NCBI GenBank assembly: GCA_029259185.1
Contig: JAPDJF010000003.1
Span: 14,875 to 78,874, forward strand
DNA: 64,000 bases
Source: Hadesarchaea archaeon
Lineage (GTDB): Archaea; Hadarchaeota; Hadarchaeia; Hadarchaeales; WYZ-LMO6
Direction of reading: 5' to 3'
The position numbers and the translations under genes are program-made. Below the pieces are notes generated by a model. The model was not told where the DNA came from. It worked only from the letters and a program-made list of their open reading frames with translations, and searched no databases. Shown piece after piece: positions 13,893 through 61,794 of this stretch (position 1 is its first letter; every line of letters begins with the position of its first letter).

Positions 13893-13976
13893 GGGTTTAA
13901 TTCCTTTTCTGAAATTTCTTATTTATTTTTTGTTTCCAGTTTTTGCTTTATCACAATTTCTGGAATATTTTAGAGC

Positions 13977-14160
13977 GGAATCGAGCGAGAAACCCCGCGC
14001 GCTTTAGCCGTGGGGTGAATGCGTGCCGAGGGCCGATTCCGCAATAGCTAACGGCCCGAGCGAACGCCCGGAGACCAAGACCCCCGTAACCCCCCTTCCA
14101 AGGGGGATCGAGCCTGGTCGTCGAAGCATGAAGCCACCGCTTTAGCGGTGCGGTAGTTCA
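13977..14160 (+). repeat. Repeat F, copy 1 (about 185 nt; hairpin-rich; other copies at 35552-35730 and 48487-48675).
   Basis: Near-identical blocks (gaatcgagcgagaaaccccgcg(c)gctttagc(c)gtgggg...ggccgattccgcaatagctaacggccc...ccgtaacc...gggggatcgagcc...ccgctttagcggtgcggtag) in all three copies. Confidence 0.5.
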
Positions 14161-32260: not shown

Positions 32261-33496
32261 GTGAGGAGGGATGATGTGTCCTCGCGAACGATAAACTGGG
32301 CGCGACTTACGAGGAGATATCCGGATCATCGTGGATACTTTGGGCCCTATGGTGGAAAATTCGTACCGGAGACCTTAATGTCAGCTCTTGAGGAACTCGA
32401 GAGATACTACTTGAAGATCAAAAAAAGCAAAAGGTTTCAGCGAGAACTTCAAGCGTTGCTGAGGGAGTATGGGGGCAGGCCTACTCCTCTCTACCATGCT
32501 AAGAGGTTAAGCGAACTGATCGGTTCCAAACTGTACTTGAAAAGGGAAGACCTGTTGTTCGGCGGTGCACATAAACTCAACAACACGCTAGGGCAAGCGC
32601 TTCTGGCCAAATATATGGGGAAGAAGCGCATAGTCGCGGAGACCGGGGCGGGACAACACGGGGTCGCCACCGCCACGGCCGCTGCCATGCTCGGTTTGGA
32701 GTGTGATATCTATATGGGTGTCACGGACATGGAGCGACAGAAACTTAACGTGTTCCGGATGCGGTTGCTGGGGGCCAGGGTGATCCCGGTCAAGAGCGGT
32801 TCCCGCACCCTGAAGGATGCCATAAATGAAGCTCTTCGGGATTGGACGACGAACGTCGAGACCACCCACTATTTGCTCGGCTCCGTGGTCGGACCTCACC
32901 CTTATCCGATGATCGTGAGAGATTTTCAGCGGGTAATCGGTCGGGAGACCAAGAAACAGATTCTAAAGCATGAAGGGCGACTACCAGATGCAATCGTAGC
33001 CTGTGTTGGTGGGGGGAGCAACGCCATCGGGATATTCTATGATTTTCTAGATGACCCTGTTCAACTCTTCGGTATCGAGGCTGGAGGAGAGGGGCTTGAA
33101 ACAAACATGCATGCCGCTCCTCTCTGTGCCGGTTCTGAAGGTGTTCTTCATGGGTCACGGAGCTACGTTATGCAGGATCGATTCGGACAGATTCTCCAGA
33201 CCCACAGCATCGCTGCTGGGTTAGACTATCCAGGTGTAGGACCGGAGCACGCTTTTCTGAAGCTTCGGGGGAGGGTGAAGTATGACTACGTTACGGATGG
33301 GGAGGCCTTAGAAGCGTTTAGGATCGTATCGAAAACCGAAGGGATCATCCCTGCCCTTGAGTCGGCCCACGCGATAGCCTACCTGAGGAAGAGAGCCTCC
33401 AAATTCAGGGGCAAGCTTGTGGTAGTTAACCTCTCGGGGAGGGGGGATAAGGATGTGGAACTTGTGGCGAAAACTTTGGGGGGATCTAAGGATTGA
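32261..33496 (+). CDS. trpB: Tryptophan synthase beta chain.
   Basis: [13 protein letters not shown] and PLP-binding HKLNN. The in-frame start is apparently GTG. Confidence 0.85.
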
Positions 33497-34308
33497 GTCG
33501 AATAGCGGAAAAATTTGAGGAACTCCGGAGAAGAGGAGAGGGTGCGCTCATAGCATTCATCACCGCGGGGGATCCGGCACCAGAAATAACCCCTTCGATC
33601 GTTCAGGTGTTAGCTAAACATGCTGATGTTGTGGAGTTGGGGTTGCCTTTTTCCGATCCCATAGCGGATGGACCAACTATCCAAGAAGCCACGGATAGAG
33701 CCCTGAGAGCCGGGACAGACACCGATACGGTGCTCGAGATCGTTAAGGAAATCCGAGAAGGGAGCGATGTGCCACTTGTGATTCTCACGTATTTCAACCC
33801 AGTACTACAATTCGGTATCCGGGAATTCTTAAGCAGGTTAGCTCACATGGGGGGCGATGGGATAATCGTGCCCGACCTCCCCATAGACGAGTCCGGAGAG
33901 TTTAGGAAGATCGCGAGGGAGGTGGGAATCGATACCATTCAACTCGTGGCACCCACCACTCCACCTTCGCGCGTGAAGACTATATGTGAAAGATCGAGTG
34001 GCTTCGTGTACGTGGTGTCCTTGTTGGGTGTCACGGGGCCGAGAGAAAGGCTCTCTGAACTCGTGAGGCCGACGATCAAGAAGGTAAAGAGGCTTTCGAA
34101 AATACCAATAGCTGTGGGGTTCGGTATCTCAAAACCTGAGCACGTGAGGGCCGTGCTGGACGCTGGAGCGGATGGAGCTATAGTGGGCAGCGCGTTCGTT
34201 AAACTCATCAAGGAGAATCTCAGCGATGTCGGAAAAATGTTGGAGGAGCTGGAAACCTTTAGTGCGGACCTGAAGAGGGCAACGAAGAAGTTGGCAAAGT
34301 TTAAATGA
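33493..34308 (+). CDS. trpA: Tryptophan synthase alpha chain.
   Basis: [11 protein letters not shown] and TIM-barrel TrpA blocks. 4-nt overlap with trpB. Confidence 0.85.
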
Positions 34309-34352: not shown

Positions 34353-34913
34353 GTGGTTTTCACGAAGGAGGGAGTACTCAAACTGTCTTTGACCGCACTT
34401 TCGATAATCCTTTGGATTGCACCTCTTATCGCCGCCTTCGGGGCGAGTGGATGGGACCTGCAGACCACGCTCGCACCCCGAGAAGACATCGAATCCCTAA
34501 CGAGCAGGACTGAGAGCATCGTCACCAGCCTCGAGGATGTGAGGAATTCCATCGAGAACGCTTGGGTTGGGTGGACGGATGAGCTAACCTTAGAGGTCAA
34601 GATCTCCCTAAGCGTACCGGAGGGAAATGTGAGGATAGATAACTTCTCGGCTAATGCGTATTGTGCTACACACGATGTATTCCTGGGGACGATCAAACTT
34701 CAAGCCCCCGTTGAACTTTCTCCTGAGACGAGCGGGGAGGTGGCCATAGTTTTAACACTGACACGAGAGGGCAAGGCCCACATCGACTCCGCACACGGTG
34801 GAGAAAACTCGTTGGAGATCAGAATTGAAAACTTGCAAGTAGCGATCTACGGTATTAAGGTCTCTATCGGAGAGTCATTAGTGGTTACAATTCCACTGGG
34901 GGAGACGGTATGA
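34353..34913 (+). CDS. Signal-anchored beta-rich extracellular protein, hypothetical.
   Basis: N-terminal TM/signal (LSLTALSIILWIAPLIAAFGASG) followed by a soluble domain. Confidence 0.45.
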   Translation: MVFTKEGVLKLSLTALSIILWIAPLIAAFGASGWDLQTTLAPREDIESLTSRTESIVTSLEDVRNSIENAWVGWTDELTLEVKISLSVPEGNVRIDNFSANAYCATHDVFLGTIKLQAPVELSPETSGEVAIVLTLTREGKAHIDSAHGGENSLEIRIENLQVAIYGIKVSIGESLVVTIPLGETV

Positions 34914-35515
34914 ACATGGATCTTGTCAAAGGGATAAACTGGTTCGGGGTCGCAGGAGGGGTTCTAATGCTTATCCTCCCCTTTTCAGGACCGTGGTGGC
35001 AAGCTCACGCGGGGGATGGAATGATGGATTTATCCTTCTCACCTTTCGATCTCCATTTGTCTATCCTCGACCAATCCATGGAGTCTCCTCTCGTGAACTA
35101 CGCCCTTCTGGCTGCGAAGCTTACGGTTCTGGTGGGGGGGCTCCTGCTGGTACTCGGGTCTATTTTCACCGGTCGGTGGTGGTCTAAGCATTTAATGAAG
35201 TTTGGTGCTACCAAGGTATTTTGGATGGTGGTGGGGATGGTGTTGCTTCTCGTGATGGGAGCGTTCTTAGCGAATAGATTCCTTCCGACCTTGGTTTCCT
35301 CCATAGTCAAAGAGGGAAACATCGACATCGATGTGGAAATCCCTTACCTCAGCGGCGAGAGCAGCGGCATAACCGTGCAGGCGGGTTCCACCGCAGTAAA
35401 CGTTCCCATCACAACCTTTTTGACCTCTAGGTTCTGGATCGCCACCGTCGTGGGATTTCTCGGAATAGCCGCCCGCGTTTATCATCGGAAGTTCACCCAC
35501 CAAAGTATGGGGTGA
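34910..35515 (+). CDS. Polytopic membrane protein (4-5 TM), hypothetical.
   Basis: ATGA overlap with the upstream gene suggests translational coupling. Hydrophobic segments present. Confidence 0.45.
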   Translation: MNMDLVKGINWFGVAGGVLMLILPFSGPWWQAHAGDGMMDLSFSPFDLHLSILDQSMESPLVNYALLAAKLTVLVGGLLLVLGSIFTGRWWSKHLMKFGATKVFWMVVGMVLLLVMGAFLANRFLPTLVSSIVKEGNIDIDVEIPYLSGESSGITVQAGSTAVNVPITTFLTSRFWIATVVGFLGIAARVYHRKFTHQSMG

Positions 35516-35551
35516 ATTCGACCTGGGAAAATTGATGATGAAGCTTTAGAA

Positions 35552-35730
35552 CGGAATCGAGCGAGAAACCCCGCACTTTAGCGTGGGGTGAATGCGTGCC
35601 GAGGTCCGATTCCGCAATAGCTAACGGCCCGAGCGAACACCTGGAGATCAATACCTCCGTAACCCCCTTCCATGGGTGATCGAGCCTAGTCGTCGAGGAG
35701 GAAGCCCCGCTTCAGCGGTGCGGTAGTCCA
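35552..35730 (+). repeat. Repeat F, copy 2.
   Basis: See F copy 1. The first hairpin has compensatory changes (ccccgcactttagcgtgggg). Confidence 0.5.
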
Positions 35731-35850
35731 CTGTCTTAGTAACCTCAAACCCGTACCTCGAACGAGTGGGCCCCCCGGATTTTGGGTATACCGGAAAATG
35801 GGCCTTAGATTTGACCACAAGTATTTAAAAGGTCTTGAGGAAGAGGGAAG

Positions 35851-36216
35851 ATGGAAGAGCTATCGAGGAACTTAGAAGCCGAACTTAAAGAGGAGCTGTC
35901 CAGGGTCATCAAGACCGAACTCCAGCAGAGTTTGGCCGAGGAACTCAAGCGCATGATGGAATCCAACTTGAAACAAGTTATCGCAGAAAGCCTCGATAAA
36001 TTGAAAATGAACGAACTTAAGGTTTCGATCGTCCAGAAGATCAAGAAAAAAATAGAGGGGAGGCTGGATCAGCTCATCGAGGAGGTGCTAGATCGGACTA
36101 CCCCCCAAGACATAAGCCGAGCGCTCCTCTCAGCGCTGAGCATGAGCATCGAGGAGGTCAAAAAGGTGCTTGAGGGAGTGGGAGCCGAAAAAACTGGAGA
36201 AAACTCCAATCCGTAG
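35851..36216 (+). CDS. Charged coiled-coil protein, hypothetical (121 aa).
   Basis: Heptad-like E/K/L-rich sequence (ELKEELSRVIKTELQQSLAEELKRMMESNLKQ). Confidence 0.4.
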   Translation: MEELSRNLEAELKEELSRVIKTELQQSLAEELKRMMESNLKQVIAESLDKLKMNELKVSIVQKIKKKIEGRLDQLIEEVLDRTTPQDISRALLSALSMSIEEVKKVLEGVGAEKTGENSNP

Positions 36217-36218
36217 AG

Positions 36219-37232
36219 GTGGAAGCGATGGGGATACTCGAATCGATTGAACTACTTAAATCCAAGTTCGGTGGTGAGTTCGATAAGGGAAAGATTTCGG
36301 TCGTTCTCCGGCCCTTAGAAGAGAAGCCTTCTGAGGTGGGTGGAGCGGAGATCACCCGGGAGATCTCAGCAGGTGAAGCCAAGCCCACGGGAGACCTATC
36401 TCAAGTTGGGGGGAAAACCCGTCACATGTTTCCTAAGTGGGATAACTTGGTTGAGAAATGGAACTCCGTAGCCCTTGCGATAGGGTTGGGGTTTTTGAAT
36501 CTCTGGAACAAAAAACACTGGGTGTTTCCGATTCTCTTGTTCGGATGTGGTATAGCACTGTGGTATCAGAGCGTTTCATCCTCTCTCCTCTCATTCACCC
36601 TTTGTATAACGGTGCTTCTCACGACCCTTGTCTTGGCTTTCGTTGGGCTTGTGGTAATGGATCAGATCCAGCGGGATATCGCCTCCACCGGAAGGATAGT
36701 AACCCAAACGCTGGTCGGCATCGTGATGATAGTTGGGTTCCTCCTCTACTTGGACCTCTCCATAGGAGGTTTCCTCCCGGCACCCCCTCTGGTGCTGTTG
36801 ATAGGGGTGATGTGGGCTATTCCACTCGTTCCCTATGTCACGCTAGCAATACTCCTTCCCCCCTTGCTTGGGAGTATCCCTAGGTTCAAACCTAAATGGA
36901 ACGCGTTGAGGGGAAAGTATCCATTTTGGGGGATATATTGTGCAGTACTTGGGGGATTGCTCATCCTGTACGTTCCACTAAAATTCTTTCCACTTTACAT
37001 GTACTCCTCTCTAGTCTTCTGGGGGATGTTTTTGGGGAGTTCCACTTTAGCTTTGGCGGCTATCCTAGCTATGTTTCCACGAAAGGATTCCACTAAGGTG
37101 ACTGGTCTGTTCTTGGTCATCTTGGCTGCGCTTTCATGGGTAGGGACGCTAGGAGGTGTTATACTGGGATCCATCCTCTGCGTGGTGGGGGGAGCCCATG
37201 CGTATGCATGGACTCCAACTTCAAGGTCATAG
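36219..37232 (+). CDS. Membrane protein: N-terminal soluble domain of about 80 aa followed by 7-8 TM helices. Hypothetical.
   Basis: Hydropathy visible by eye. The start is 3 nt after the preceding stop. Confidence 0.45.
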   Translation: MEAMGILESIELLKSKFGGEFDKGKISVVLRPLEEKPSEVGGAEITREISAGEAKPTGDLSQVGGKTRHMFPKWDNLVEKWNSVALAIGLGFLNLWNKKHWVFPILLFGCGIALWYQSVSSSLLSFTLCITVLLTTLVLAFVGLVVMDQIQRDIASTGRIVTQTLVGIVMIVGFLLYLDLSIGGFLPAPPLVLLIGVMWAIPLVPYVTLAILLPPLLGSIPRFKPKWNALRGKYPFWGIYCAVLGGLLILYVPLKFFPLYMYSSLVFWGMFLGSSTLALAAILAMFPRKDSTKVTGLFLVILAALSWVGTLGGVILGSILCVVGGAHAYAWTPTSRS

Positions 37233-37269
37233 GAGGGCCTATGACAAAAAACGAAGGAGGGAGTAAAGA

Positions 37270-37773
37270 ATGGAAGGATTTGGAAAAATAGCAGGTGTGG
37301 GGCTGGCGTCTATCTTCGGTATAGTGGTGATGACTTCGATGGCGGGAGTGAGCCTAGGAATGCCAGTGAGTGACTTCCAATTCAGTGCCGATGGGATCCA
37401 GGGACGAGGATTAAACCTCTATGCTGGGACTATATCTGAAAATTCTGGAGAGCTGGGAAAGATTTTCATAGAGCTGGATGGTGCCGATATAGCGGAGATG
37501 TGTATATCCAAGGAGATGTCTATTGGAGGACTCACCGTGAGAGCTATTGTTAAGGGATCTAGCGCTGAAGCGATGAGTGTGCTGATGAAGTGCGAAAACT
37601 TCATGGCGACCACGATGGCGGCGGAGAACTTGGGAATGGGTCCCTCCGGGGACAAAGAGTTCGCTACTACTGCCGACGTTCTCAACGTTAAAAATGTCAG
37701 GGCTTGGGTGAGTCATATGAACGTGGGCTCCATCGACTTAAACGATCTCGTGATAAAGCTCGAAATAGTGTAG
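37270..37773 (+). CDS. Secreted/anchored protein, hypothetical (167 aa).
   Basis: N-terminal hydrophobic segment (IAGVGLASIFGIVVMTSMAGVSLG). Confidence 0.4.
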   Translation: MEGFGKIAGVGLASIFGIVVMTSMAGVSLGMPVSDFQFSADGIQGRGLNLYAGTISENSGELGKIFIELDGADIAEMCISKEMSIGGLTVRAIVKGSSAEAMSVLMKCENFMATTMAAENLGMGPSGDKEFATTADVLNVKNVRAWVSHMNVGSIDLNDLVIKLEIV

Positions 37774-37813
37774 CCGTAAGACGCCAGCCTCTTTTAATTT
37801 TTGGGGGACCTGC

Positions 37814-38338
37814 ATGCGATTTCATCAAGGTTTCAAGTTAGCCTTCCTCGTTTTCCTGAGTTTATTTGCTCTCATCATCTTTCCCGTTCCCTTGCTTGGG
37901 GGAAGCGAGCCCACTTTCCAAATCTGGGCAAACTCTTCTTCCACCGATCAAATAAATATCGTGGGGGATGTCAACGAAAACATCACTTTGGTCACCACCC
38001 TATCGATACATCTTGAAGGGGTGACGATACTAATCGATAACGTGTGCTTGTGCTTGGACGACGTGGATCTCGAAAATTTTTACATGTGTGTGGAGTATCT
38101 GGAAACCGATATCGAGATCTTCGGTGTGATCCCGCTCGCCCATCTCGTCATAAACGGGTCCCATGTTGATGAGGGGATACCACTCCTCGGGGCGATATTG
38201 GGTCTTCAAACGTGCCATACGGCCGATGCCCATCTTGGTCCACCCTTGACTTCCCTCATCCGGATGAATAACATGTATGTCGTGGCCAGAGAGCTGAGTT
38301 GTAAGCTGGAGGCCGAAAACGTGGTCATACGGGTGTGA
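37814..38338 (+). CDS. Secreted protein, hypothetical (174 aa).
   Basis: N-terminal signal-like segment (FKLAFLVFLSLFALIIFPVPLLGG). Confidence 0.4.
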   Translation: MRFHQGFKLAFLVFLSLFALIIFPVPLLGGSEPTFQIWANSSSTDQINIVGDVNENITLVTTLSIHLEGVTILIDNVCLCLDDVDLENFYMCVEYLETDIEIFGVIPLAHLVINGSHVDEGIPLLGAILGLQTCHTADAHLGPPLTSLIRMNNMYVVARELSCKLEAENVVIRV

Positions 38339-38412
38339 AACGTACTCTCAAGTGCTCGACCTAGGTCCGGAAGGGATATCTACCCCTTGCACCTAGTTTT
38401 TTTTGGATAAGG

Positions 38413-38787
38413 GTGTACAGGTGGAGACACTTCAGACACGGGCCCGGGAGGCCCATGAAACCCAGATTCATAGGGTTAAAACCATGTCTCTTCACGTTTA
38501 TTCCTTCCTCATGTGAAGAATTTCCCCCTGGAACTCCGGATCCAATTTATATGGCATACGATGAGTATGAGGCATTTCGGCTAGTGTACCATGAGGGGTT
38601 GAATCAAGAGGAGGCTGCCAAGCGGATGAGAATTTCGCGGGGGACGCTGTGGCGCTGTCTTGAGAGTGCGAGGAACAAAATAGCGCGTATGCTAGTGGAA
38701 CACCGCCCCCTTGTGGTCACCCCCGCACCCCATCCGACTCCGGGAGCCACCTCGACTGGGAGTTCCCCTCCGCTCATCCATCGTTAG
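38413..38787 (+). CDS. Sigma-70 region-4-like HTH protein (archaeal DUF134/UPF0251-type).
   Basis: LNQEEAAKRMRISRGTLWRCLESARNKIA resembles a sigma-70 r4/LuxR-type HTH. Confidence 0.45.
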   Translation: MYRWRHFRHGPGRPMKPRFIGLKPCLFTFIPSSCEEFPPGTPDPIYMAYDEYEAFRLVYHEGLNQEEAAKRMRISRGTLWRCLESARNKIARMLVEHRPLVVTPAPHPTPGATSTGSSPPLIHR

Positions 38788-39845
38788 AAATACTTGTCTA
38801 TATTCTCTAACGCTTTTGTGACCAAGGAGCTTGCTGAAGTCATGTCATGCATGTCCAGCATCTCTACTGAGGAGTGGATGTATCTGGTGGGAATACCTAC
38901 TACTCCTGTGGGAATGCCGGCCCGTGTTAGGGATATGGCGGTCGCATCAGTAGTTCCACCCTTAGCCACGTCCAACTGGTATGGGATTTTGTGCGCTTCC
39001 GCTGTTTCGGTCAGCCACTTCAGTACGTTTCTGGAGACGATGATCCCCCTTCCACTCGCATCCACCACCGTTATGGATGGTCCCTTCCCTAGCTCCAGAG
39101 ACGAGTCTTTCTTCTCTATTCCTAAGTGATCACCAGGTATTGAGACATCCAAGGCTATAGCCACGGATGGCTGAAGCCCAAAAGCGGAGGTTTTAGCTCC
39201 TTTCAGTCCAACCTCCTCCTGCACAGTCCCTACCGCATACACGGTGGCACTCGTTTTTGTCTTCTTCACAGCGTCTATCATTATAGCTAGTCCCGCCCTA
39301 TTGTCGAACCCTTTTCCCGTCACCCTATTGTTTATGAGGAATCTGACCGTTCTATCCAAAGTCGCCACGCTACCGATCGTTACCCCAGCTTTTTTTACCT
39401 CTTCCTCGCTTCGAGCTCCCACATCTATGAACATGTCGTCTGCTTTGATGGGTTTCTTCTTCTCCTCTTCCTCTAACAAGTGGGGCGGCTTTGACCCTAT
39501 CACTCCGTACACCTCTCCTCTCTCGGTTTTGAACACAACTCTTTCGTTCAGGAGAGTTTGTTCGAACCATCCCCCTATGGGAACGAAACGTATGAACCCC
39601 CGTTCGTCTATGTATTTGACCATCAACCCGATTTCATCCATGTGAGCCGCAAGCATGCAAGAGGTAGACGAACCATTTTTGATTGCTATCAAGTTTCCCA
39701 TCGTGTCGATCTTTATCTCATCCACATGACCTTCCAACTCCTCCTTGAGGATCTCTCTTATCTCATCCTCACGACCCGAAACACCGTGGGCATTGGACAG
39801 CTTCTCCAGAAGTTCTTTCATCTCGGACACCCAAACCTCTCTCAC
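38784..39845 (-). CDS. M42-family aminopeptidase (TET/FrvX-like).
   Basis: 353 aa with M42 blocks (AHMDEIGLMV, GKGFDNRAG, DVAKGGTTDA). Confidence 0.75.
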   Translation of the reverse strand: MREVWVSEMKELLEKLSNAHGVSGREDEIREILKEELEGHVDEIKIDTMGNLIAIKNGSSTSCMLAAHMDEIGLMVKYIDERGFIRFVPIGGWFEQTLLNERVVFKTERGEVYGVIGSKPPHLLEEEEKKKPIKADDMFIDVGARSEEEVKKAGVTIGSVATLDRTVRFLINNRVTGKGFDNRAGLAIMIDAVKKTKTSATVYAVGTVQEEVGLKGAKTSAFGLQPSVAIALDVSIPGDHLGIEKKDSSLELGKGPSITVVDASGRGIIVSRNVLKWLTETAEAHKIPYQLDVAKGGTTDATAISLTRAGIPTGVVGIPTRYIHSSVEMLDMHDMTSASSLVTKALENIDKYF

Positions 39846-48485: not shown

Positions 48486-48486
48486 G

Positions 48487-48675
48487 TGAACTACCGCACC
48501 GCTAAGGCGGTGGGCCTCTTGCTTCAACGATGAGGCTCGATCCCCCTTGGAAGGACGGGTTACGGAGGTCTTGACCTCACGGGCGTTCGTTCGGGCCGTT
48601 AGCTATTGCGGAATCGGCCCTCGGCACGCATTCGCCCCACGGCTAAAGCGCGCGGGGTTTCGATCCCGTTCTAAA
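48487..48675 (-). repeat. Repeat F, copy 3 (reverse orientation).
   Basis: The reverse complement aligns along its full length to F copies 1 and 2. Confidence 0.5.
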
Positions 48676-51424: not shown

Positions 51425-53122
51425 TCAGGGGGAGGTGCACTGGTCGAACACTAGTTCACCCATGAGTCTGTAGAGGAAGTTGCTCTCCGATTCGAGGTTC
51501 AAATGCTCGATCCGGCTTACCATTTCTTCCACTTCTTTTCGTTTCTTCCTCGAGACCAACACCTGTCGGGCCCCCTCTAGTGCCGCATTCCCCACCCGTT
51601 CGACCCTACTGAGGGAAACTTCAGGGAGTAGACCTATCCGGTAAGAGTTTTCTACGTTTATGTAGTTTCCGAATGCCCCGGCGAGGTAAATCTTTTTTAC
51701 CTCACCTAGGCTGGTCCCATATTTCTCCAGAAGCACCTTATTTCCCACACAAACCGCCGCTTTCGCGAGCTTCAGCTTGTCTATATCCTCCCCATCTATT
51801 TTTATGGGTCTCTCTCCGGCGACTACCACGAATTCCCGCCCGCCCTTTTTGAATTTTCCTGTTTTGTCTATTATCCCACGATCCAGCATCTGGGCCAGGA
51901 TATCGATCAGGCCAGATCCACATATCCCCACGGGTGGGAGGTCACCTATGGTCTCGTATCGAACCCGCATGCTTTCGTCTATTTCTACCTTGTGTATTGC
52001 CCCCTCTACTGCCCCACTCCCACATTTTATCCCGCTTCCCTCGAAGGCGGGTCCGGAGGCGCATGAGGTGGCGATCATCCTATCTTTATTTCCTATCACT
52101 ATCTCGGTGTTGGTTCCTATGTCTATCATCATGCTCACCTCTCGCCTCTTGTGCATCCCTGTAGCTAAAATGGCAGCAGAGGTGTCGGCCCCCACGAAAC
52201 CCCCGATGAGGGGAAGAGCATAGACGTTTCCCTTGGGATTCATCTTTATTCCTAGCTCTCCTCCACTTCTGTTCACGGGATCTTTGGTGAACGGCTCAAA
52301 CGGGGCCACCCCTAGAGAATCCACCGGGTGGCCTAGGAAGAGATCCCTCATCGTTGAGTTTCCTACCACGACCATCTCGTATACGTGCTGCGGATCGACT
52401 TTCAGCCCCTCGATCATCTCGTTCACCCCACTTCTCACAACGGTCTCCAGTTTGTGCTGCTTTTTCTCCCGAGCACGGGTTATCCTGGCGATGACATCGC
52501 TTCCATACACTTCTTGAGGGTTCTTCATAGCAGTAGTCCCCACGATGAGTCCTTTTTCTAAATCCACGCAGTACATCGCTAGTGTGGTTGTTCCAATATC
52601 CAGAGCTAGCCCGAGCATCTCCCCCTCATAATCCCCGATCTCCCTCACAATTCCATTCCACTCCCAGCGCACCCTCCGTGTTTCTCCTTCACCACCAACT
52701 ACACCTATCACCGGTTCGAGGGGTACTGGAACGACCTTGCCTCTCTCCAGCACCTTGTACCTCCGCTTTGGGACTTCCACGTATATGTTTGCATCTTCTT
52801 TCTCCACTCTGGCTTGGCAGGCGAGTCTGTATCCGGTTTCTTTGATGAACTTCTTTTCGATGTCTCCGGGTTCGTTCAGCCCTTCTCCTTCTACTTTTAC
52901 CACACACTGGCCACACGCTCCGATGCCTCCGCAGAGGGAGCTTATGTCTATCCCGAGTTCTTGGCAATAAGAGAGGATCGTCTTGCCCTTGGTCAGTTTC
53001 GCTTCCTTTCCGTAGTTCCGAAAAAAAATCTTCCCCAATCTCTCCCCTCTAACAAACACTTTTCTTGGATTTAATCTCACCGGCAAGAGGCTTTGTGGTG
53101 GATGAGCGGAGATTCGTTCCAA
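51425..53122 (-). CDS. Reductive activator of corrinoid Fe-S protein (RACo-like; COG3894, ASKHA ATPase with an N-terminal [2Fe-2S] ferredoxin domain).
   Basis: Plant-type 2Fe-2S motif (CGGIGACGQCVV...C) followed by an actin-like ATPase fold (DIGTTT, VDIGTNTE). Confidence 0.7.
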   Translation of the reverse strand: MERISAHPPQSLLPVRLNPRKVFVRGERLGKIFFRNYGKEAKLTKGKTILSYCQELGIDISSLCGGIGACGQCVVKVEGEGLNEPGDIEKKFIKETGYRLACQARVEKEDANIYVEVPKRRYKVLERGKVVPVPLEPVIGVVGGEGETRRVRWEWNGIVREIGDYEGEMLGLALDIGTTTLAMYCVDLEKGLIVGTTAMKNPQEVYGSDVIARITRAREKKQHKLETVVRSGVNEMIEGLKVDPQHVYEMVVVGNSTMRDLFLGHPVDSLGVAPFEPFTKDPVNRSGGELGIKMNPKGNVYALPLIGGFVGADTSAAILATGMHKRREVSMMIDIGTNTEIVIGNKDRMIATSCASGPAFEGSGIKCGSGAVEGAIHKVEIDESMRVRYETIGDLPPVGICGSGLIDILAQMLDRGIIDKTGKFKKGGREFVVVAGERPIKIDGEDIDKLKLAKAAVCVGNKVLLEKYGTSLGEVKKIYLAGAFGNYINVENSYRIGLLPEVSLSRVERVGNAALEGARQVLVSRKKRKEVEEMVSRIEHLNLESESNFLYRLMGELVFDQCTSP

Positions 53123-53219
53123 GTATTCGGATTTCAGCGATCACCATACCAAAAGTTTTTATGTGCAATAGCTAAAAAACATAAGCTTAAAGATGGATGA
53201 GTAAAAGGGGGGAAGGGCC

Positions 53220-53639
53220 GTGAATGGACATGAACCGAGGATTATAGCTTTCTTCTGCAACTTCTGCTCCTATTTAGCAGCAGATATGGCTGGAGTGAGC
53301 AGGATCCAGTATCCGCCGAACGTGCGGATTATCCGACTGATGTGTACAGGAAGATTGAGTCCTCTTTATATTCTAGAAGCGTTCGCGCGAGGTGCTGACG
53401 GGGTGTTGGTGGCGGGATGCCATCCCGGTGATTGTCACTTCATAAAAGGAAACCTGTATGCGAGGAGGAGAGTTTCCATGTTGAAGAAACTGCTTGAGAT
53501 GATGGGGATAGACCCGAGGAGACTCCGACTCGAGTGGGTTTCAGCCTCCGAAGGAAACAAACTCGCGAACGTGATCAAGGAATTCGTTGAAGAAGTTAGA
53601 TCGCTCGGAGCCAACCCGCTGAAGGAGGTTAACGCGTGA
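53220..53639 (+). CDS. mvhD: MvhD-type [2Fe-2S] protein (methyl-viologen-reducing hydrogenase delta subunit family).
   Basis: IIAFFCNFCSY...MCTGR...GADGVLVAGCHPGDCH shows the typical MvhD cysteine pattern. Confidence 0.7.
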   Translation: MNGHEPRIIAFFCNFCSYLAADMAGVSRIQYPPNVRIIRLMCTGRLSPLYILEAFARGADGVLVAGCHPGDCHFIKGNLYARRRVSMLKKLLEMMGIDPRRLRLEWVSASEGNKLANVIKEFVEEVRSLGANPLKEVNA

Positions 53640-55663
53640 TCGACTACGTGCCCACCATCTGTCCGTACTGCGGGTGCGGGTGTGGTATGTACTTGGTGGT
53701 GAAAGAGGGGAGGATAGTGGGTGTGGAGCCATGGAAGGAACATCCAGTGAGTGAAGGAAAGCTGTGTCCAAAAGGGAGGAATTCTTACGAGTTCCTGTAC
53801 AGCCATGATAGATTGAAAAAACCATTGGTACGTCGGGGAGATAGACTTGTGGAAGGATCTTGGGAGGATGCGCTTCGCCGAGTGGTCAACGAGTTCAGAG
53901 ATACCTCTCCAGAGGATTTTGGAATTCTCGCATCGGGAAAGACAACAAATGAGGAGAGCTATGTGTTGCAGAAGTTCGGGAGGGTAGTTATAGGAACCAA
54001 CAACATAGACTACTGTGCTAGGTTCTGTCACGCAACCACGGTTGGTGGGTTGGGGCCCACCTTAGGTTCTGGAGTGATGGCATCTTCCGTGCTAGACTAC
54101 GAGCTTCCCGATTGTTTTTTGATAGCCGGGGTGAATGTTCAGGAGACATTCCCTGCTATCGCGAGACGCATCAAAAGGGCAAAAGAACGTGGGGCAAAGA
54201 TAATAGTTATCGACCCCCGGAAGACGCTTACGGCTAAGCTTTATGCAGATATACATCTCCAACTCTTTCCGGGAACCGATGTTGCACTCATAAATGGGAT
54301 GATGCGCGTGATACTGGATGAGGGACTTGAAAACGGAGAGTTCATCGAGAAGAGAACCAAAGGTTTTGAGGAGCTCAAAGAATACTTGCTCAGCATCGAT
54401 CTCAAAGAAGTGGAAGAAACCACGAACGTCTCGCTAGATGAAATCAAAAAGGCGGCTGAAACATATGCCGGGGCAAAAACCGGTAGCATCCTTTACGATG
54501 AGGGGATCACGGAGTACACGACGGGAGCGGAGAAAATAACCGCGTTGGCCGACTTAGCTTTGCTTACCGGACACGTGGGTAAGCCGGGTGCGGGCGTGAA
54601 TCCGATGAGGGGGCAAATAAATGGAGAAGGCACAGGAGACATGGGGTGTTTCCCGGTGTTCTATCCCGGGTTCAAGCCTCTAACCGAGCAGACATTCGAA
54701 TTTTTCAGGGACGTCTGGAATGTTGAGTCAATTCCCGAGAAAGCAGGCAAGACCGTTATGGAGATGCTCGAGGACTGCAAAAAACTCTACATCGTGGGTT
54801 TTAATCCCATGGTCTCTGCGCCCCACGTCACTCGGGTAAAGGAATTGTTGGAGCAGAAAGAGTTCGTGGTTGTTCAGGACATTTTTCTAACGGAGACCGC
54901 AGCTTTGGCAGATGTTGTCTTACCGAGCGCAGCGTGGGGGGAGAAAATGGGTACACACACATGGACCGATCGAAGGGTTCAACTCGTTAGGAAAGCCGTG
55001 GATCCACCTGGAGAAGCCATTCCCGATTGGCAGATAATCTGCAGGTTAGCTGAGATGATGGGATACGGCGATCACTTCGAATACAAATCTCCACGTGATA
55101 TTTTCGAGGAGATAAGGAGGTGTGTTCCCCAATATAGAGGGATCAGCTATGAAAGATTGGAGAAGAGTTCAGGAGGGATTCAGTGGCCCTGTCCTTCGGA
55201 AGATCATCCAGGGACCTCCACGATGTTCGTGGAGAGATTTAACACCCCTGATGGATTCGGACACTTTGGAGTAGTTCAGTACAGGCCCCCGGCGGAACTT
55301 CCGGATAACGAATATCCGTTCATGCTTACCACGGGGAGGGTGATATTCCATTACCACACCGGCACGATGACGAGGAGAACCGAGAGACTCAGCAACGAAG
55401 TCCCCACGGGTTTTGCCGTGATCCATCCCGAAAATGCTGAGGAGCTCGGGATAATGGATGGGGATGAGATCCTACTTGTCTCAAGACGTGGGAGAGTTAA
55501 AACTTTTGCGAGAGTCTCAAACGAGGTTGCGAGGGGGCTCATATTCATGCCGTTTCATTTCGCCGAACGTGCGGCGAATATCCTGACGAACCCCGTGTTG
55601 GCACCCACTAAGATGCCCGAGTTCAAACTCTGTGCTGTCAGGATCGAGAGGGAGGGCAGTTGA
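53636..55663 (+). CDS. fdhA: Formate dehydrogenase alpha subunit (molybdo/tungstopterin; Cys type).
   Basis: N-terminal 4Fe-4S (CPYCGCGCG...C), the MopB domain and a C-terminal MoCo-binding domain. No in-frame TGA. Confidence 0.85.
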   Translation: MIDYVPTICPYCGCGCGMYLVVKEGRIVGVEPWKEHPVSEGKLCPKGRNSYEFLYSHDRLKKPLVRRGDRLVEGSWEDALRRVVNEFRDTSPEDFGILASGKTTNEESYVLQKFGRVVIGTNNIDYCARFCHATTVGGLGPTLGSGVMASSVLDYELPDCFLIAGVNVQETFPAIARRIKRAKERGAKIIVIDPRKTLTAKLYADIHLQLFPGTDVALINGMMRVILDEGLENGEFIEKRTKGFEELKEYLLSIDLKEVEETTNVSLDEIKKAAETYAGAKTGSILYDEGITEYTTGAEKITALADLALLTGHVGKPGAGVNPMRGQINGEGTGDMGCFPVFYPGFKPLTEQTFEFFRDVWNVESIPEKAGKTVMEMLEDCKKLYIVGFNPMVSAPHVTRVKELLEQKEFVVVQDIFLTETAALADVVLPSAAWGEKMGTHTWTDRRVQLVRKAVDPPGEAIPDWQIICRLAEMMGYGDHFEYKSPRDIFEEIRRCVPQYRGISYERLEKSSGGIQWPCPSEDHPGTSTMFVERFNTPDGFGHFGVVQYRPPAELPDNEYPFMLTTGRVIFHYHTGTMTRRTERLSNEVPTGFAVIHPENAEELGIMDGDEILLVSRRGRVKTFARVSNEVARGLIFMPFHFAERAANILTNPVLAPTKMPEFKLCAVRIEREGS

Positions 55664-56904
55664 TGGAAGGAAGGATGTATCTGGCGATCGCTTCTGACGT
55701 CGAAATGCGAAGGAGGGGGGAATGCGGAGGGGTGGTCACTGCACTGCTCAAGTTCTTGTTAGAGAGCAAAACCGTAAACGCCGTCCTGGCCGTGAAGAAA
55801 AGGGGAAATCGATACGATGGAGTTTCCCAGCTGATCACGGATCCTGAAGAGGTGCTAGAATGTGCTGGATCCCTCCACTGTGTTTCTCCTAACATAGCCA
55901 AGAATTTGAAGAATTATCTCGATGGGGCTCAAAACATGAAGATAGCCGTGGTGTGTAAACCATGTGATGCTCGTGCGATCGTGGAGCTGACCAAGCGAGA
56001 ACAAGTGAACTTCGAGAACCTCATCCTAATAGGTGTTAACTGCACGGGTATCTTCCCTCCCAATATCGCGAAAAGAATGTTGGTGGAGGAATATGGTGTA
56101 GATCCTTCTGAAGTGGTCAGGGAGGACATAGATGGGAAAAATCTGATCATCACGCTTAGGGATGGATCCAGGAGGATGAGGGATCTGGAGGAGTTGGAGA
56201 GGAAGGGATATGGGAGAAGAGCGAATTGCAAGAGATGTGATGTGAAGATCCCGCGGATGGCCGATTTGGCATGCGGGAAGTGGGGAGCGGAGAAGGAAGA
56301 TCAGACATTCGTAGAAGTCTGTAGCGAAAGGGGAGCGGAAATACTGGAGAACGCCGTGAAATCAGGATACGTGATCGTGGAGCCTCCCAGCAGAGAGGCC
56401 ATCGAAGAAAGAAAAAGAAAAGAAACTGAGGCTATCGAGTTTGCCAGAAAGGAAAGAAGGGAGGAGTTTGCCGAGATAGAGAAGATGAATCTTGAAGAGA
56501 GATTCAAGTATTGGAACGGGTATTTGGAGAGATGTGTAAAGTGTTTTGGGTGTAGGGACGTTTGTCCGATATGCTATTGCAGGGAATGTTATCTGGAAGC
56601 AGATCGTGGGCTTGTGAAACCCGGGCGGATTCCCCCCGAGCGAATGTTTCCACTCGTTCGGATAGCTCACGTAGCAGACTCATGTGTTAACTGCGGTCAG
56701 TGTGAGGACGCATGCCCGATGGAGATTCCGATATCTAAGTTATGTTCCATGTTAAACCAATATCTCAGTTCGATGTTTAGGTACATCCCCGGAATGGATC
56801 CTAGGGAGAAACCACCCCTTACCATGGTAACGGATGGGGAGTTCTCTGTTGAGGACATCGATCTCTTCTTTAATCTTAAGTTCGTGTCTGGTAAACCGAG
56901 TTGA
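55660..56904 (+). CDS. fdhB: Formate dehydrogenase beta subunit (F420-reducing FdhB/FrhB family).
   Basis: FrhB-like N-terminal domain plus C-terminal 2x[4Fe-4S] (CVKCFGCRDVCPIC ... CVNCGQCEDACP). 4-nt overlap with fdhA. Confidence 0.8.
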   Translation: MMEGRMYLAIASDVEMRRRGECGGVVTALLKFLLESKTVNAVLAVKKRGNRYDGVSQLITDPEEVLECAGSLHCVSPNIAKNLKNYLDGAQNMKIAVVCKPCDARAIVELTKREQVNFENLILIGVNCTGIFPPNIAKRMLVEEYGVDPSEVVREDIDGKNLIITLRDGSRRMRDLEELERKGYGRRANCKRCDVKIPRMADLACGKWGAEKEDQTFVEVCSERGAEILENAVKSGYVIVEPPSREAIEERKRKETEAIEFARKERREEFAEIEKMNLEERFKYWNGYLERCVKCFGCRDVCPICYCRECYLEADRGLVKPGRIPPERMFPLVRIAHVADSCVNCGQCEDACPMEIPISKLCSMLNQYLSSMFRYIPGMDPREKPPLTMVTDGEFSVEDIDLFFNLKFVSGKPS

Positions 56905-56911
56905 ATCCGGG

Positions 56912-57185
56912 TTTTAACTCTGTCGGCGGGAAGTTCCCTGCGAGAGCTGGGGATGAGAGCCGAAAACCATGTTATTTCCCCTCCAATTTCTTCCGGGAGG
57001 TGGAGAGGGCCACCCCGAACCCAACGCCTTGGAAAACCGATGACCTGCACAGCGCAGGTAGGATGGACATTGGATCTCCGTAACCGCCCGAAGGGGGATG
57101 GGATCGGGTCGGTGGATGAAGCAGGGGCTAGAGCACGCTAAAGCGGGGAAAGCTTCCGCGAAGCGCGAGGGAAAAGCGGAAGCCC
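56912..57185 (-). repeat. Repeat D, copy 2 (inverted relative to copy 1), in the convergent fdhB/cdhE intergenic region.
   Basis: Its reverse complement aligns to 47805-48050. Confidence 0.5.
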
Positions 57186-57214
57186 CCTGCAAAAGCGAGG
57201 GGAGGAGGTCACGC

Positions 57215-58621
57215 TTATTTCCACTTTTCGGCAAGAAACTTTGGGATCCCGGAGGAATCTCTGGGGCCTATGAGAACCTCCCACTCGAAGTTAAGCAGTT
57301 CCTCCAGTTCGCCTTTGTAGCGAGCGGCCATACCGGGTAGGATGACTTTTCGATGCTTTACTTTTTCTTTAACCCCAGATTCCTTGATGGCTTCCGCTAT
57401 TTTCTCGGCCGTCAGTTTTCTTCCCGCTATCGCCGATTCCACACTTATCCCTTCAGTATCGACAACGATCAGATAGGAAGGTACCTTGGAGGATTCTATA
57501 TCACTCACCACCGTGAAGTAGGTCAGGGCGAAATTAGATGTTACCATGATGGGAGAGTTCTCGCCCACGTCTCCAATAGTTCTCATCCCAGGATCCACGC
57601 TTACAGGCTTTCTCGGATCCGTGTATATGTTTTCCCTCAGGATCACTTGGGGCAGAAGAACCCACATCTCGTCGGATTTCAGTATGAGCAGGTCGGCGTA
57701 TCTCACCATCAATATAGTTGCGAGTGAGGTTTCCATCCACATGTTTGCTTCCGACGTTTTTCCCCCGTCTTCCCAGACTCTCAGAGGAGTTCCGACTAGT
57801 GGAAATCCGACTAGTTCATCCCCGCCTTTTATGGCCGTGTTTCTCAATGCCGTGAAGTTATTTATGGTTTCCTTTATTTTTTCCCCGAAGCTAGCTCCCG
57901 GATCCAGCAGGATGTCTTCGATCCCATAAGCTAGTATCGTTTTGGTTAAGGACTTGAGCATTTTCAGGTTCCCGGGGGAATAAATCGTGAGAGGACACCC
58001 ATACTTCGAGGCGAGTTCTGCCATCCCTTTCCAGTTATCCTCGGTAGCGGCATACAACAACGGCTTTCTTTCGGAAACCGTGCTCAGTGCACGCTCCATT
58101 GTTTTTGGATCCATACACCAGAGGATCAAGGGGAGCTTAGTCATCGATGCTTTCTTCACAGCTCTCTCGAATTTTTCAGGATCATTCGTTACACACCGAA
58201 CAGCTATCATGTCGAGCTTGAGGGTCTTCCCTATGTATGTATATCCAAATTCCTCCACTCTTTTGATTCTTTTCAGGATGTCGATTTCGGACATGTCGTC
58301 ATCGACCGTGATCGCTATCGGCACGGGATTGAAATATCGATACTCATGTCTTCTAACCACGAGTTGACCACCCACCTTCACTTGACTTTCTCCAGTACCT
58401 ATGGTGACCTCCTTAACGGGAGGCTTGAGCATCTCTTGCAGCTTTTGGAGGCTCGCCTTGTACTTATCTTCAAAGAGCTCAGGGCACTCCTCGATCGAAA
58501 TTGTTCGCTCAGCCAGCCTAGCCGCGAAGGCCATACAAACACCGGGTTCACATTTGCCACAGTTGGTCTTCGGCAAAAGCGCGTATATGTCCAAAGGTCC
58601 TATCTTCTTCTTGGCGGCCAA
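57215..58621 (-). CDS. cdhE: Acetyl-CoA decarbonylase/synthase gamma subunit (corrinoid Fe-S protein large subunit).
   Basis: N-terminal CGKCEPGVC 4Fe-4S motif, a TIM-barrel/pterin-binding-like domain and a length of 468 aa. Confidence 0.85.
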   Translation of the reverse strand: MAAKKKIGPLDIYALLPKTNCGKCEPGVCMAFAARLAERTISIEECPELFEDKYKASLQKLQEMLKPPVKEVTIGTGESQVKVGGQLVVRRHEYRYFNPVPIAITVDDDMSEIDILKRIKRVEEFGYTYIGKTLKLDMIAVRCVTNDPEKFERAVKKASMTKLPLILWCMDPKTMERALSTVSERKPLLYAATEDNWKGMAELASKYGCPLTIYSPGNLKMLKSLTKTILAYGIEDILLDPGASFGEKIKETINNFTALRNTAIKGGDELVGFPLVGTPLRVWEDGGKTSEANMWMETSLATILMVRYADLLILKSDEMWVLLPQVILRENIYTDPRKPVSVDPGMRTIGDVGENSPIMVTSNFALTYFTVVSDIESSKVPSYLIVVDTEGISVESAIAGRKLTAEKIAEAIKESGVKEKVKHRKVILPGMAARYKGELEELLNFEWEVLIGPRDSSGIPKFLAEKWK

Positions 58622-58625
58622 GACT

Positions 58626-59804
58626 TCACTCCCCTATCCCTATCCAATCTTGGAAGGTAGGTTCCCCTTTTTCACCCATTAGCCATTTGATGACATCTTT
58701 CATCGTTCGGATGGCAGCTGGATGAAGCGTGATGTACAAATCATTTCCCGCCATGAGCATCGTGAGAGCCATGGCCGCCTCCCACATGGGCCCTCTGTAC
58801 CGCCTCGGCCCGAGTTCGGGCTCCGGTTTCCAAGCCTCTCGAGCACCCCATGCGTTCGCGGTTGCGGATCCCATTGGGCACTGAAGCTCTTCATCCCCCA
58901 TCAAGCCTGCCAAACGTATCCGTTCCATGATCGAGAATGCGTATTCGATCCCGTACCCCAAGGGGGCGGAGGTTGGATCTATTATTACTCTCTCCTTCGG
59001 CACATAATCGAAGAGCTTTCGATTCAGCTCCTTAGCTTGGGCCATGTCGATGGAGGTCCAAGCGAGTACTACATGCCCATGTTTTTTGGCAGCCTCGGCA
59101 ACAGGCTCCCACATGTCTAAGGTAGCCGAGCTCAGCAGGACGCGCTCTCCTTCGCAAGTTTCTGCTACCTTCGGTAGGAGCTTGGCATCTTTCTCCGGGT
59201 TGCCCGAGCCCCCCACGACGAGGGGGACGTCAACCGCCTGAAGGATATTTTCAACTAGCTTGCATGATTCTTCGATGGGCGTATTCTTCGTGTAAGGGTC
59301 ACTACTCACTAGCTCTATGTCTACCATATCAGCTCCAAATTTTTCAACGGCTATCCTAGCCCACTCCACAGGATCCTCTAGTGCATCTCCCAAGACCGTC
59401 TTCACCGGGCCTGGAAGCCTGATAGGCATGTCGAACACATCGCCAGCTATCACGGGGGGGTTTGGGAACTTTCCTTCGAAGAAATGCCAGGGGGGAGCGG
59501 TAGCCCCACCTATTTTTATGACTTTTCCTCTAGTGCCCCCATCGGCCCTCGTGGCTCCGAGTGTTACTTCTGCTATCGATCCAGGGTACTCCTGCACGAA
59601 TGGCGAGAATTCGGTCTCCAAAATCGAACTCGGTTTGGGTAGGGAGGGTGGTGAGGGCAAAACGGTTGGAGCGACTTGAGCCAGCGATCTGAACACAAGT
59701 TTGAGATCCTCAGCGTTGAGTTCTACGTTTTGAAGTTCAAACTCATTGTATTGCTTGAGAAGCTCCAATAAACCATCTATTGGGGTTCTCTCCCCTGCCT
59801 TCAT
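58626..59804 (-). CDS. cdhD: Acetyl-CoA decarbonylase/synthase delta subunit (corrinoid Fe-S protein small subunit).
   Basis: 392 aa CdhD/AcsD-like TIM barrel. Position in the operon. Confidence 0.8.
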   Translation of the reverse strand: MKAGERTPIDGLLELLKQYNEFELQNVELNAEDLKLVFRSLAQVAPTVLPSPPSLPKPSSILETEFSPFVQEYPGSIAEVTLGATRADGGTRGKVIKIGGATAPPWHFFEGKFPNPPVIAGDVFDMPIRLPGPVKTVLGDALEDPVEWARIAVEKFGADMVDIELVSSDPYTKNTPIEESCKLVENILQAVDVPLVVGGSGNPEKDAKLLPKVAETCEGERVLLSSATLDMWEPVAEAAKKHGHVVLAWTSIDMAQAKELNRKLFDYVPKERVIIDPTSAPLGYGIEYAFSIMERIRLAGLMGDEELQCPMGSATANAWGAREAWKPEPELGPRRYRGPMWEAAMALTMLMAGNDLYITLHPAAIRTMKDVIKWLMGEKGEPTFQDWIGIGE

Positions 59805-61791: not shown

Positions 61792-61794
61792 ATT

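Follow-up and report, generated by a model that had tools for sequence, protein, structure and literature searches.

This paper concerns a run of seven genes, here called P1 to P7, on the + strand of a 64,000-nucleotide (64-kb) stretch of a Hadesarchaea archaeon genome (contig JAPDJF010000003.1 of assembly GCA_029259185.1; the whole of this stretch is referred to as the window), and within that run the four genes P3, P4, P5 and P6, two of which encode members of the Pfam families DUF6114 and DUF6230. An earlier reading, made from the letters alone and referred to as the sequence-only reading, took all seven genes to be a dedicated envelope or surface module with a regulator of its own. The view put forward here, which on the sequence data has about an even chance of being right, is that the run is a composite in which an orphan pair (P1 and P2) with a repeat, a conserved block P3-P6 and an unlinked DUF134 gene stand side by side, and that the conserved block is a Hadarchaeales DUF6114-DUF6230 envelope module which couples the export of proteins to their processing.

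All seven of the open reading frames (ORFs) that had been placed here on the + strand are present at those positions (Table 1), and the same genes are called independently in three public assemblies of this genome, with the closest named homologues lying in metagenome-assembled genomes (MAGs) of Candidatus Hadarchaeales. The flanks are also as had been described, with trpA on one side and a peptidase gene on the other, the latter now known to be of the M42 type and convergent, and the coupling of P2 to P1 through an ATGA overlap is confirmed. Hydropathy finds in each of P1, P5 and P6 the one N-terminal hydrophobic segment that had been read there (aa 7-34 in P1, where it acts as a putative anchor for an acidic ectodomain, and aa 6-31 in P5), whilst P2 has about four transmembrane segments, in keeping with the four to five that had been counted. 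No enzyme family was matched by any of P1-P7 in Pfam, NCBIfam or PHROGs.

Table 1. Positions in the window of the seven genes, of their flanks and of the sequence features discussed
Feature	Position	Strand	Remarks
trpA (Trp_syntA)	33493-34308		left flank of the P1-P7 stretch
P1	34353-34913	+	186 aa ORF
P2	34910-35515	+	201 aa ORF; its ATG overlaps the stop codon of P1 as ATGA
P3	35851-36216	+	121 aa ORF
P4	36219-37232	+	337 aa ORF
P5	37270-37773	+	167 aa ORF
P6	37814-38338	+	174 aa ORF
P7	38413-38787	+	124 aa ORF
M42 peptidase	38784-39845		convergent; right flank of the P1-P7 stretch
TATA-like box TATTTAAAA	35822-35830	+	21 nt upstream of the P3 ATG; seen in sequence
T8 run	38397-38404	+	59 nt past the P6 stop codon; seen in sequence
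Repeat, copy 1	35545-35731		intergenic, between P2 and P3; core of the copy, in + orientation
Repeat, copy 2	13969-14160	+	89% identity to copy 1 (blastn)
Repeat, copy 3	48486-48675	-	83% identity to copy 1 (blastn)

The genes P3 to P6 are separated by 2-40 nt (37 nt between P4 and P5, on the same strand), and the gap between P2 and P3 is 335 bp and contains both a copy of the repeat and the TATA-like box TATTTAAAA. This box may be read as the promoter of a P3-P6 unit, and the T8 run that follows P6 as the archaeal oligo-T terminator that would close it. A further A/T-rich TATA-like box can be read after the stop codon of trpA, ahead of P1, and the boxes before P1 and before P3, together with the T8 run after P6, suggest that there are three transcription units. 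Scans for sigma-70 promoters and for bacterial terminators were uninformative, as they are not applicable to archaea.

The four genes of the core

The genes P3, P4, P5 and P6, with the convergent M42 peptidase gene beside them, are found in the same order in at least four other lineages of Hadarchaeales (orthologous loci L004/L018, L007-L009, L017 and L019), where the proteins share 52-58% (P3), 58-69% (P4), 54-58% (P5) and 49-52% (P6) identity with those of the window. In these relatives P3 is preceded by a divergently transcribed HD/metallo-beta-lactamase gene pair and P6 is followed at once by the M42 peptidase gene; the loci that were examined lack P1, P2, the repeat and P7 (the DUF134 gene). 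The seven-gene cluster therefore reduces to a conserved unit of four genes beside lineage-specific ones, as synteny, orphan status and the putative transcription signals all indicate. The check on gene neighbourhoods that had been proposed with the sequence-only reading thus comes out in two ways, with P3-P6 and the peptidase gene co-localised in other Hadarchaeales and P1, P2 and P7 not, and the idea of a dedicated envelope module stands for P3-P6 and falls for the seven genes as a whole.

The first gene of the core, P3, encodes a highly charged protein (20 K+R, 24 D+E) that has no hydrophobic segment and only sub-threshold matches in Pfam, these being to helical families; it is probably a cytoplasmic helical or coiled-coil protein. 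In L004, L007 and L008 the P4 orthologue has that of P3 immediately ahead of it, with an overlap of 4 nt in L007.

P4 does have the soluble N-terminus that had been seen in it, a region of about 85 aa that is variable among homologues, and this is followed by 8-10 transmembrane segments by hydropathy instead of the 7-8 first counted. The start of the protein is probably the ATG at 36228 (giving 334 aa) and not the GTG at 36219, because homologues begin MGILE. Its C-terminal four helices (aa 228-332) are a DUF6114 domain (PF19609), which scores 47.4 bits against a gathering threshold of 27.9 and covers positions 2-106 of the 106 in the profile. The membrane part is very conserved among orthologues, and the motifs RYPFWGIY and GGAHAYAWxP are common to P4 and to the proteins of three further loci (L010, L013 and L015) and of Natronococcus that are described below. 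Against the sequences of the PDB nothing meaningful was found for P4.

P5 is a member of DUF6230 (PF19741; 41.1 bits against a gathering threshold of 27.5, E 2.7e-10, positions 4-139 of the 145 in the profile), and the precomputed annotation of P0001, a protein identical to P5, is also DUF6230. When 1.84 billion representative proteins were searched with a profile of the P5 family nine proteins were returned at E<=1e-3, mostly weak or clear DUF6230. A signal peptide is predicted to span aa 1-30, with cleavage at VSLG|MPVSDF after Gly30 (nucleotide 37359), which places the stretch that carries the motif as VSLG|MPVSDFQFSADGI. It is apparent from an alignment of DUF6230 sequences (n=13) that a hydrophobic N-terminus, a small residue at position -1 and, at +2, a Pro that hardly ever varies are general features of the family; Pro32 and Ala40 (P5 numbering) are the nearly invariant positions, and the mature motif can be written small residue | x-Pro ... 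F-x-[IV]-x-A-D. The signal peptide would thus end at [A/G]|x-Pro across the family.

A model of P5 that was built from the 13-sequence alignment (pLDDT 79, pTM 0.71) has an N-terminal helix followed by an all-beta meander of long strands. The structure check that had been suggested for these proteins therefore yielded a model for P5, yet no significant match to it, with Foldseek against the PDB giving a best E of 0.02 with a TM-score of at most 0.22 and recovering neither TasA nor AbpA, and Foldseek against the BFVD viral models giving nothing at E<=0.001. A profile search of P5 against PDB sequences gave no match either. As modelled, the fold appears to have no solved counterpart and not to be TasA-like. 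A full-text search of the literature found DUF6230 or DUF6114 named in one paper only, a promoter screen.

The fourth gene of the core, P6, would encode an exported or anchored beta protein. In addition to its N-terminal hydrophobic segment it has an ENF..Y motif and an N-x-T sequon, both of them conserved; it has no Pfam family and found nothing meaningful among PDB sequences. Alignment by hhalign with the beta domains that flank a fusion gene in L010 and L013, which is described in the next section, gives a probability of 63-74% (E 3e-6 to 7e-5), and P6 is probably related, at a distance, to the membrane-anchored beta-domain proteins flanking this gene in L010, L013 and L021. Paralogy between P5 and P6 was also considered and rejected: BLASTP and hhalign on the orthologue alignments were empty, and wider alignments gave a 28-column motif at a probability of 10%. 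The weak reciprocal matches of P5 and P6 by hidden Markov model (HMM) suggest a distant superfamily at most.

DUF6114 and DUF6230 at other loci and a proposed scheme

DUF6114 and DUF6230 are adjacent in six of the seven independent loci that have enough flanking sequence. In two of these (L010/L011 and L013) DUF6230 is immediately preceded by a gene whose product joins an archaeal-type signal peptidase I to DUF6114, and the same fusion gene is found in L021, where the contig ends just after it, so that the fusion is seen in three loci from two lineages. The fusion proteins of L010 and L013 score 78.3 and 71.7 bits with TIGR02228, for which the cut-off is 51.85, and 46 and 40 bits with the SipW model, which is under its cut-off of 190; the SM-P Ser, HRV His and GDAN boxes of the peptidase are intact in the proteins of all three loci. 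The DUF6114 domain of the L010 fusion is 33% identical to residues 230-335 of P4 (E 4e-13), and in L013 the stop codon of the fusion gene and the start codon of DUF6230 overlap. The statement that none of the genes carries enzyme motifs is thus correct for the locus in the window, although paralogous loci fuse the same membrane domain to signal peptidase I.

The two families also meet without a fusion. A long-form DUF6114 protein that resembles P4 (34% identity) is found in L015/L020 amid three or four DUF6230-like paralogues, with one DUF6230-like domain fused to Flg_new_2 surface repeats, whilst in L012 a DUF6230 gene is followed directly by one for a DUF6114-like protein, and on the megaplasmid NZ_CP132295 of Natronococcus sp. 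AD-5 (L022) a DUF6230 gene is followed by a stand-alone DUF6114 gene 6 nt away (E 1e-25). A scan of genome contigs with the DUF6114 alignment, the two search patterns of which were narrow, gave only Hadarchaeota. Adjacency in six of seven loci, together with the peptidase fusion, is good evidence for a functional link between DUF6114 and DUF6230.

These loci have a number of other features. At 2664-4993 of L015 (the same as L020, from Ca. Hadarchaeota ERP127260_co1_66) the DUF6230-like paralogues are in tandem, and the Flg_new_2 (InlB B-repeat-like) region is reached across an assembly gap (a run of X). Right after the Natronococcus pair (6791-8383 of L022) lies an ORF of about 530 aa that is extremely acidic, with a segment like a signal peptide and D/E/T-rich tandem repeats (DDTEES.DET-like), the product of which may be a third component in haloarchaea. 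Downstream of DUF6230 in L010 (2500-8167, JGI 3300033144) there are about a dozen small ORFs without a Pfam match, several of them for membrane proteins, and this may be a mobile element or a virus-like region. The DUF6230-like protein P0027 of L025 stands alone amid housekeeping genes (Fae/OMPdecase, PALP). L021 (1-7613) is scaffold 22 of the MAG Ca. Hadarchaeales JZ-2_201705_bins_146 and encodes, in order, a BACON protein, a polytopic protein of 635 aa that combines a signal peptidase I domain with a Cys-rich tail, a DUF5305 protein, an M10 matrixin-like peptidase, a protein with a transmembrane segment and a beta domain, and the fusion protein. It shares its MAG with an orthologous locus of the P3-P6 block; a single Hadarchaeales MAG therefore holds both, and the order can carry both forms.

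It is proposed that in the window P3-P6 would be transcribed together and that P5, and probably P6, would carry an N-terminal signal peptide when synthesised and leave the cytoplasm by the Sec route. A type I signal peptidase, which would be encoded elsewhere in the genome, would then cut P5 after Gly30 at the [A/G]|x-Pro site, a position to which family conservation, Edman data from Geobacillus (see below) and the fusions all point. P4 would act through its DUF6114 four-helix domain as a dedicated membrane partner of the mature beta proteins, receiving them, holding them or assembling them on the outside of the membrane, this role being suggested because of the conserved adjacency and the peptidase fusion in paralogous loci. 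More speculatively, P3 might be a cytoplasmic coiled-coil accessory that is bound to the cytoplasmic N-terminus of P4. The product of such a system would be a cell-surface assembly of beta proteins, with a coat or matrix and the handling of hydrophobic substrates as candidates for what it does. The module probably does place a processed protein on the cell surface, because membrane-protein relatives of P4 are fused to signal peptidase, and the context of the loci is supportive of the surface, with the Flg_new_2 fusion in L015/L020 and the BACON, DUF5305, M10 peptidase and second signal peptidase genes of L021.

Several results weigh against this scheme. The signal peptidase HMM has no ORF match in the 64-kb window and P4 has no peptidase domain, so that the coupling to processing is seen only in the paralogous loci. 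P3 was not found outside the orthologous loci, the structural model of P4 is poor and unusable (pLDDT 44), and in non-circular HMM tests P6 matched the flanking beta proteins weakly (E 0.002-0.3). Common descent could account for part of the synteny among the orthologues in Hadarchaeales, and in the locus that is the exception to the pairing (5001-5609 of L025, GCA_905333535.1) the weakly DUF6230-like P0027 has no DUF6114 neighbour. Finally, the link to the Geobacillus proteins P21 and P16, which are treated in the next section, is made through peptides of 13-17 residues only.

Alternative readings and the genes outside the core

Of the other explanations, the one that fares best, although it is unlikely, is that the module deals with hydrophobic substrates, the DUF6230 proteins being surface-retained, beta-barrel-like binders of long-chain alkanes or lipids and DUF6114 their membrane receptor or hand-over partner. 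In Hadarchaeota the module would then serve alkane or lipid metabolism as its step of extracellular capture and uptake, a reading of what the cargo does that can be combined with the scheme of export and processing. In Geobacillus thermoleovorans long-chain alkanes induce the proteins P21 and P16, with a stronger effect the longer the chain, and fatty acids and triacylglycerols do not induce them. Both proteins are abundant in the insoluble or membrane fraction; they are made with signal peptides of 38 and 45 residues, and their N-termini, determined by Edman degradation as AFPLSGVGGFTISADLI and VPISGVGEFxVTFDKL, resemble a 'cholesterol esterase' of Streptomyces lavendulae (PMC2676291). P21 is GK2770, the gene for which lies beside the alkane-oxidation cluster GK2771-2782, and its AlphaFold model is described as having the form of a large beta-barrel and a helix at the N-terminus (PMC10867098); the P5 model, too, combines an N-terminal helix with an all-beta body. 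When the N-terminal peptides of P21 and P16 were compared with 1,959 ORFs from the window and the fetched loci the best hits were the DUF6230 proteins of L012 (P0022) and of Natronococcus (L022), with the matches falling exactly on the predicted mature N-terminus (E 5e-4, 2e-3 and 0.01).

Further points in its favour are that P0025 comes from a hydrocarbon metagenome, and that the orthologous locus L019 comes from the MAG WYZ-LMO6, which gives its name to the GTDB family that holds all of the Acr-encoding, alkane-oxidising Hadarchaeota (PMC10811742, PMC11297162). Hexadecane and longer alkanes support the growth of this Acr-encoding family. Against the reading, the comparison of P21, P16 and the esterase with DUF6230 is by short peptides only, P5 of the window is not among the hits, and an internal peptide reached only E 0.48 with the Hadarchaeal orthologues of P5. 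Those who described P21 and P16 judged that over the full length their similarity to the esterase is negligible, and attempts to disrupt the two genes were unsuccessful (PMC2676291). There is also no gene for alkane metabolism in the window, and the family occurs in Natronococcus, which has no known link to alkanes. It would be a long shot to go further and regard DUF6114-DUF6230 as an unrecognised envelope system of archaea and Gram-positive bacteria that captures very hydrophobic substrates such as long-chain alkanes and lipids at the cell surface and passes them to the membrane, with P3-P6 as the step outside the cell with which the anaerobic use of long-chain alkanes begins in Hadarchaeota and the fusions as the mark of a dedicated route by which the binder matures.

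It is decidedly unlikely that the module builds a fibre of the TasA/ABP type, in which P5 would be a pilin-like subunit joined by donor-strand exchange, P6 a TapA/AbpB-like anchor or nucleator and P4 the platform for assembly. A SipW-type signal peptidase does stand beside the secreted subunit in the paralogous loci (above cut-off with TIGR02228 and below it with the SipW model), there are several paralogues of the subunit family per locus in L015/L020, membrane-anchored beta proteins occur in the same loci (L010 and L013), and the ABP operon of Pyrobaculum has a similar mix of parts (PMC9245690). However, neither P5 nor P6 matches Pfam Peptidase_M73/TasA, profile searches of the two against PDB sequences were empty, and the window contains no peptidase. 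The model of P5 does not have the jelly-roll fold that TasA and camelysin (Peptidase_M73) would lead one to look for in a major subunit, and a dedicated signal peptidase I of the archaeal/endoplasmic reticulum type is found in L010, L013 and L021 and not in the window.

The reading of all seven genes as one surface module under helix-turn-helix (HTH) control now appears very improbable. It has on its side that the genes lie on the same strand and are closely packed, and that all of the products except P3 and P7 are membrane or exported proteins. Yet relatives keep only P3-P6 beside the M42 peptidase gene, the 335-bp gap with its repeat and TATA-like box parts P2 from P3, the T8 run parts P6 from P7, P1 and P2 are orphans, and the DUF134 family is widespread and unconnected with these loci.

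P1 found no relative in searches of Pfam, NCBIfam, PHROGs and the PDB, and a scan of metagenomes gave partial matches of 38 aa only, without any relatives, whilst P2 has no family match in Pfam, NCBIfam or PHROGs and nothing meaningful among PDB sequences. Each is the sole member of its own 90% identity cluster, and neither has a detectable relation to the profiles of the core. As judged from these searches P1 and P2 are lineage-specific orphans that lie outside the conserved core. The possibility that they form a third, divergent pair of beta protein and DUF6114 was looked at and set aside, as P2 aligns with the DUF6114 alignment at an hhalign probability of 0.6% and the core profiles were unmatched.

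The repeat that had been seen between P2 and P3 is there, and two further copies of it lie in the window. It is a dispersed, intergenic, G+C-rich element of about 190 bp, the three copies of which are 82-89% identical. A role as a structured RNA was rejected, since there is no match in Rfam, folding is no better than that of shuffled sequences (z 0.1 and 0.7) and there are no compensatory pairs among the three copies. The repeat is absent from the loci of the relatives and from the viral contigs that were examined. Copy 1 sits exactly where synteny with the other Hadarchaeales breaks, and it may mark a point of rearrangement or insertion.

P7 had been described as a small HTH protein like region 4 of sigma-70. 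That it has an HTH is upheld, but the family is DUF134 (UPF0251, PF02001; 69.5 bits against a gathering threshold of 27, aa 12-102), and the match to Sigma70_r4 (PF04545) is 22.5 bits, under the gathering threshold of 24.1, so the likeness to sigma-70 region 4 is at the level of the HTH only. With PRK04217 of NCBIfam it scores 97 bits, under the cut-off of 115. Public gene calls start P7 at an internal ATG, which gives 78 aa, whereas the 124-aa form starts with GTG; the longer form is taken as the right one because the match to PF02001 begins at residue 12. No counterpart of P7 lies between P6 and the M42 peptidase gene in the relatives' loci, and P7 is best described as a DUF134 gene unlinked to the core. 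The claim that the module has its own regulator falls with this, as the DUF134 gene is not kept beside the core, and a seven-gene module with a regulator should not be carried forward; the four-gene core alone merits follow-up.

That the core genes are chance neighbours, or are held together by common descent alone without a shared function, is barely credible, for although every one of the orthologous loci belongs to a single order and the genes are known from sequence alone, DUF6114 and DUF6230 stand side by side where loci have no further genes in common, and also in a second archaeal class, DUF6114 is fused to signal peptidase directly upstream of DUF6230, and start and stop codons overlap in L007 and L013.

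A phage origin of the stretch was also considered and rejected, there being no PHROG match among P1-P7 except for the HTH protein. Elsewhere the window encodes carbon monoxide dehydrogenase/acetyl-CoA synthase (CODH/ACS), an F420-dependent formate dehydrogenase, SecDF and other housekeeping genes. The block at 51425-63939, with RACo, the molybdopterin and FrhB-like subunits of the formate dehydrogenase and the CODH/ACS subunits CdhD, CdhC and a Prismane/CdhA-like protein, is Wood-Ljungdahl machinery and is in line with Hadarchaeota. At 3034-3130 (+) there is an Rfam match to tRNA of 57 bits with a span of 97 nt, and ARAGORN finds no tRNA in the window; this tRNA probably carries an archaeal intron.

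Comparison with known systems

DUF6230 and DUF6114 are already catalogued in Pfam as uncharacterised families and have almost no literature. What is new is the four-gene architecture in Hadarchaeales, with its long-form DUF6114 and its coiled-coil and P6 partners, the link between the DUF6114-DUF6230 pair and signal peptidase I and, tentatively, a bridge from the pair to alkane-induced proteins. Two families of this kind are thereby tied into one system with a biochemical handle that can be tested, namely the [A/G]|x-Pro site and the fusion to signal peptidase I. The work on P21 and P16 provides the sole experimental data that appear to concern DUF6230, the connection being a tentative one. 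Hadarchaeota have been cultured on alkanes only recently, and an envelope locus of four genes offers a concrete target for proteomics and imaging.

The logic shared with tapA-sipW-tasA of Bacillus subtilis is that of a secreted beta-rich protein with a second exported or anchored protein, and with a peptidase in the operon only at L010, L013 and L021 (PMC9245690). As for differences, no similarity of P5 or P6 to TasA or TapA was found in sequence or fold, the peptidase of L010, L013 and L021 carries a DUF6114 membrane domain that SipW does not have, and the locus in the window is without a peptidase.

The ABP operon of Pyrobaculum calidifontis consists of genes for a secreted beta subunit, a TapA-like protein, three proteins with four transmembrane segments and a protein with one N-terminal transmembrane segment and a beta-rich ectodomain, and of a winged HTH gene (PMC9245690). 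The locus in the window is like it in being archaeal, in having a comparable list of parts and an HTH gene, and in lacking a dedicated peptidase (PMC9245690). The two are likened by their parts, and AbpA was not recovered in the fold searches.

P21 (GK2770) and P16 (GK3040) of Geobacillus thermoleovorans / kaustophilus are similar to the DUF6230 proteins in that they are of 196-201 aa with long signal peptides and have mature N-termini that align with those predicted for the DUF6230 proteins P0022 and L022, in a comparison made by short peptides only. The mature motif of P5 in the window (MPVSDFQFSADGI) is shortened by comparison with theirs, and the beta-barrel with N-terminal helix modelled for P21 resembles the P5 model.

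The pair on the Natronococcus megaplasmid NZ_CP132295 is like the genes of the window in that both P5 and the C-terminus of P4 are above the Pfam cut-offs and the two genes are adjacent. In Natronococcus, DUF6114 is a stand-alone four-helix protein of 171 aa placed after DUF6230, whereas in the window it forms the C-terminal end of a protein of 337 aa, which has 4-6 extra helices and a soluble N-terminus and lies before DUF6230, in the company of P3 and P6.

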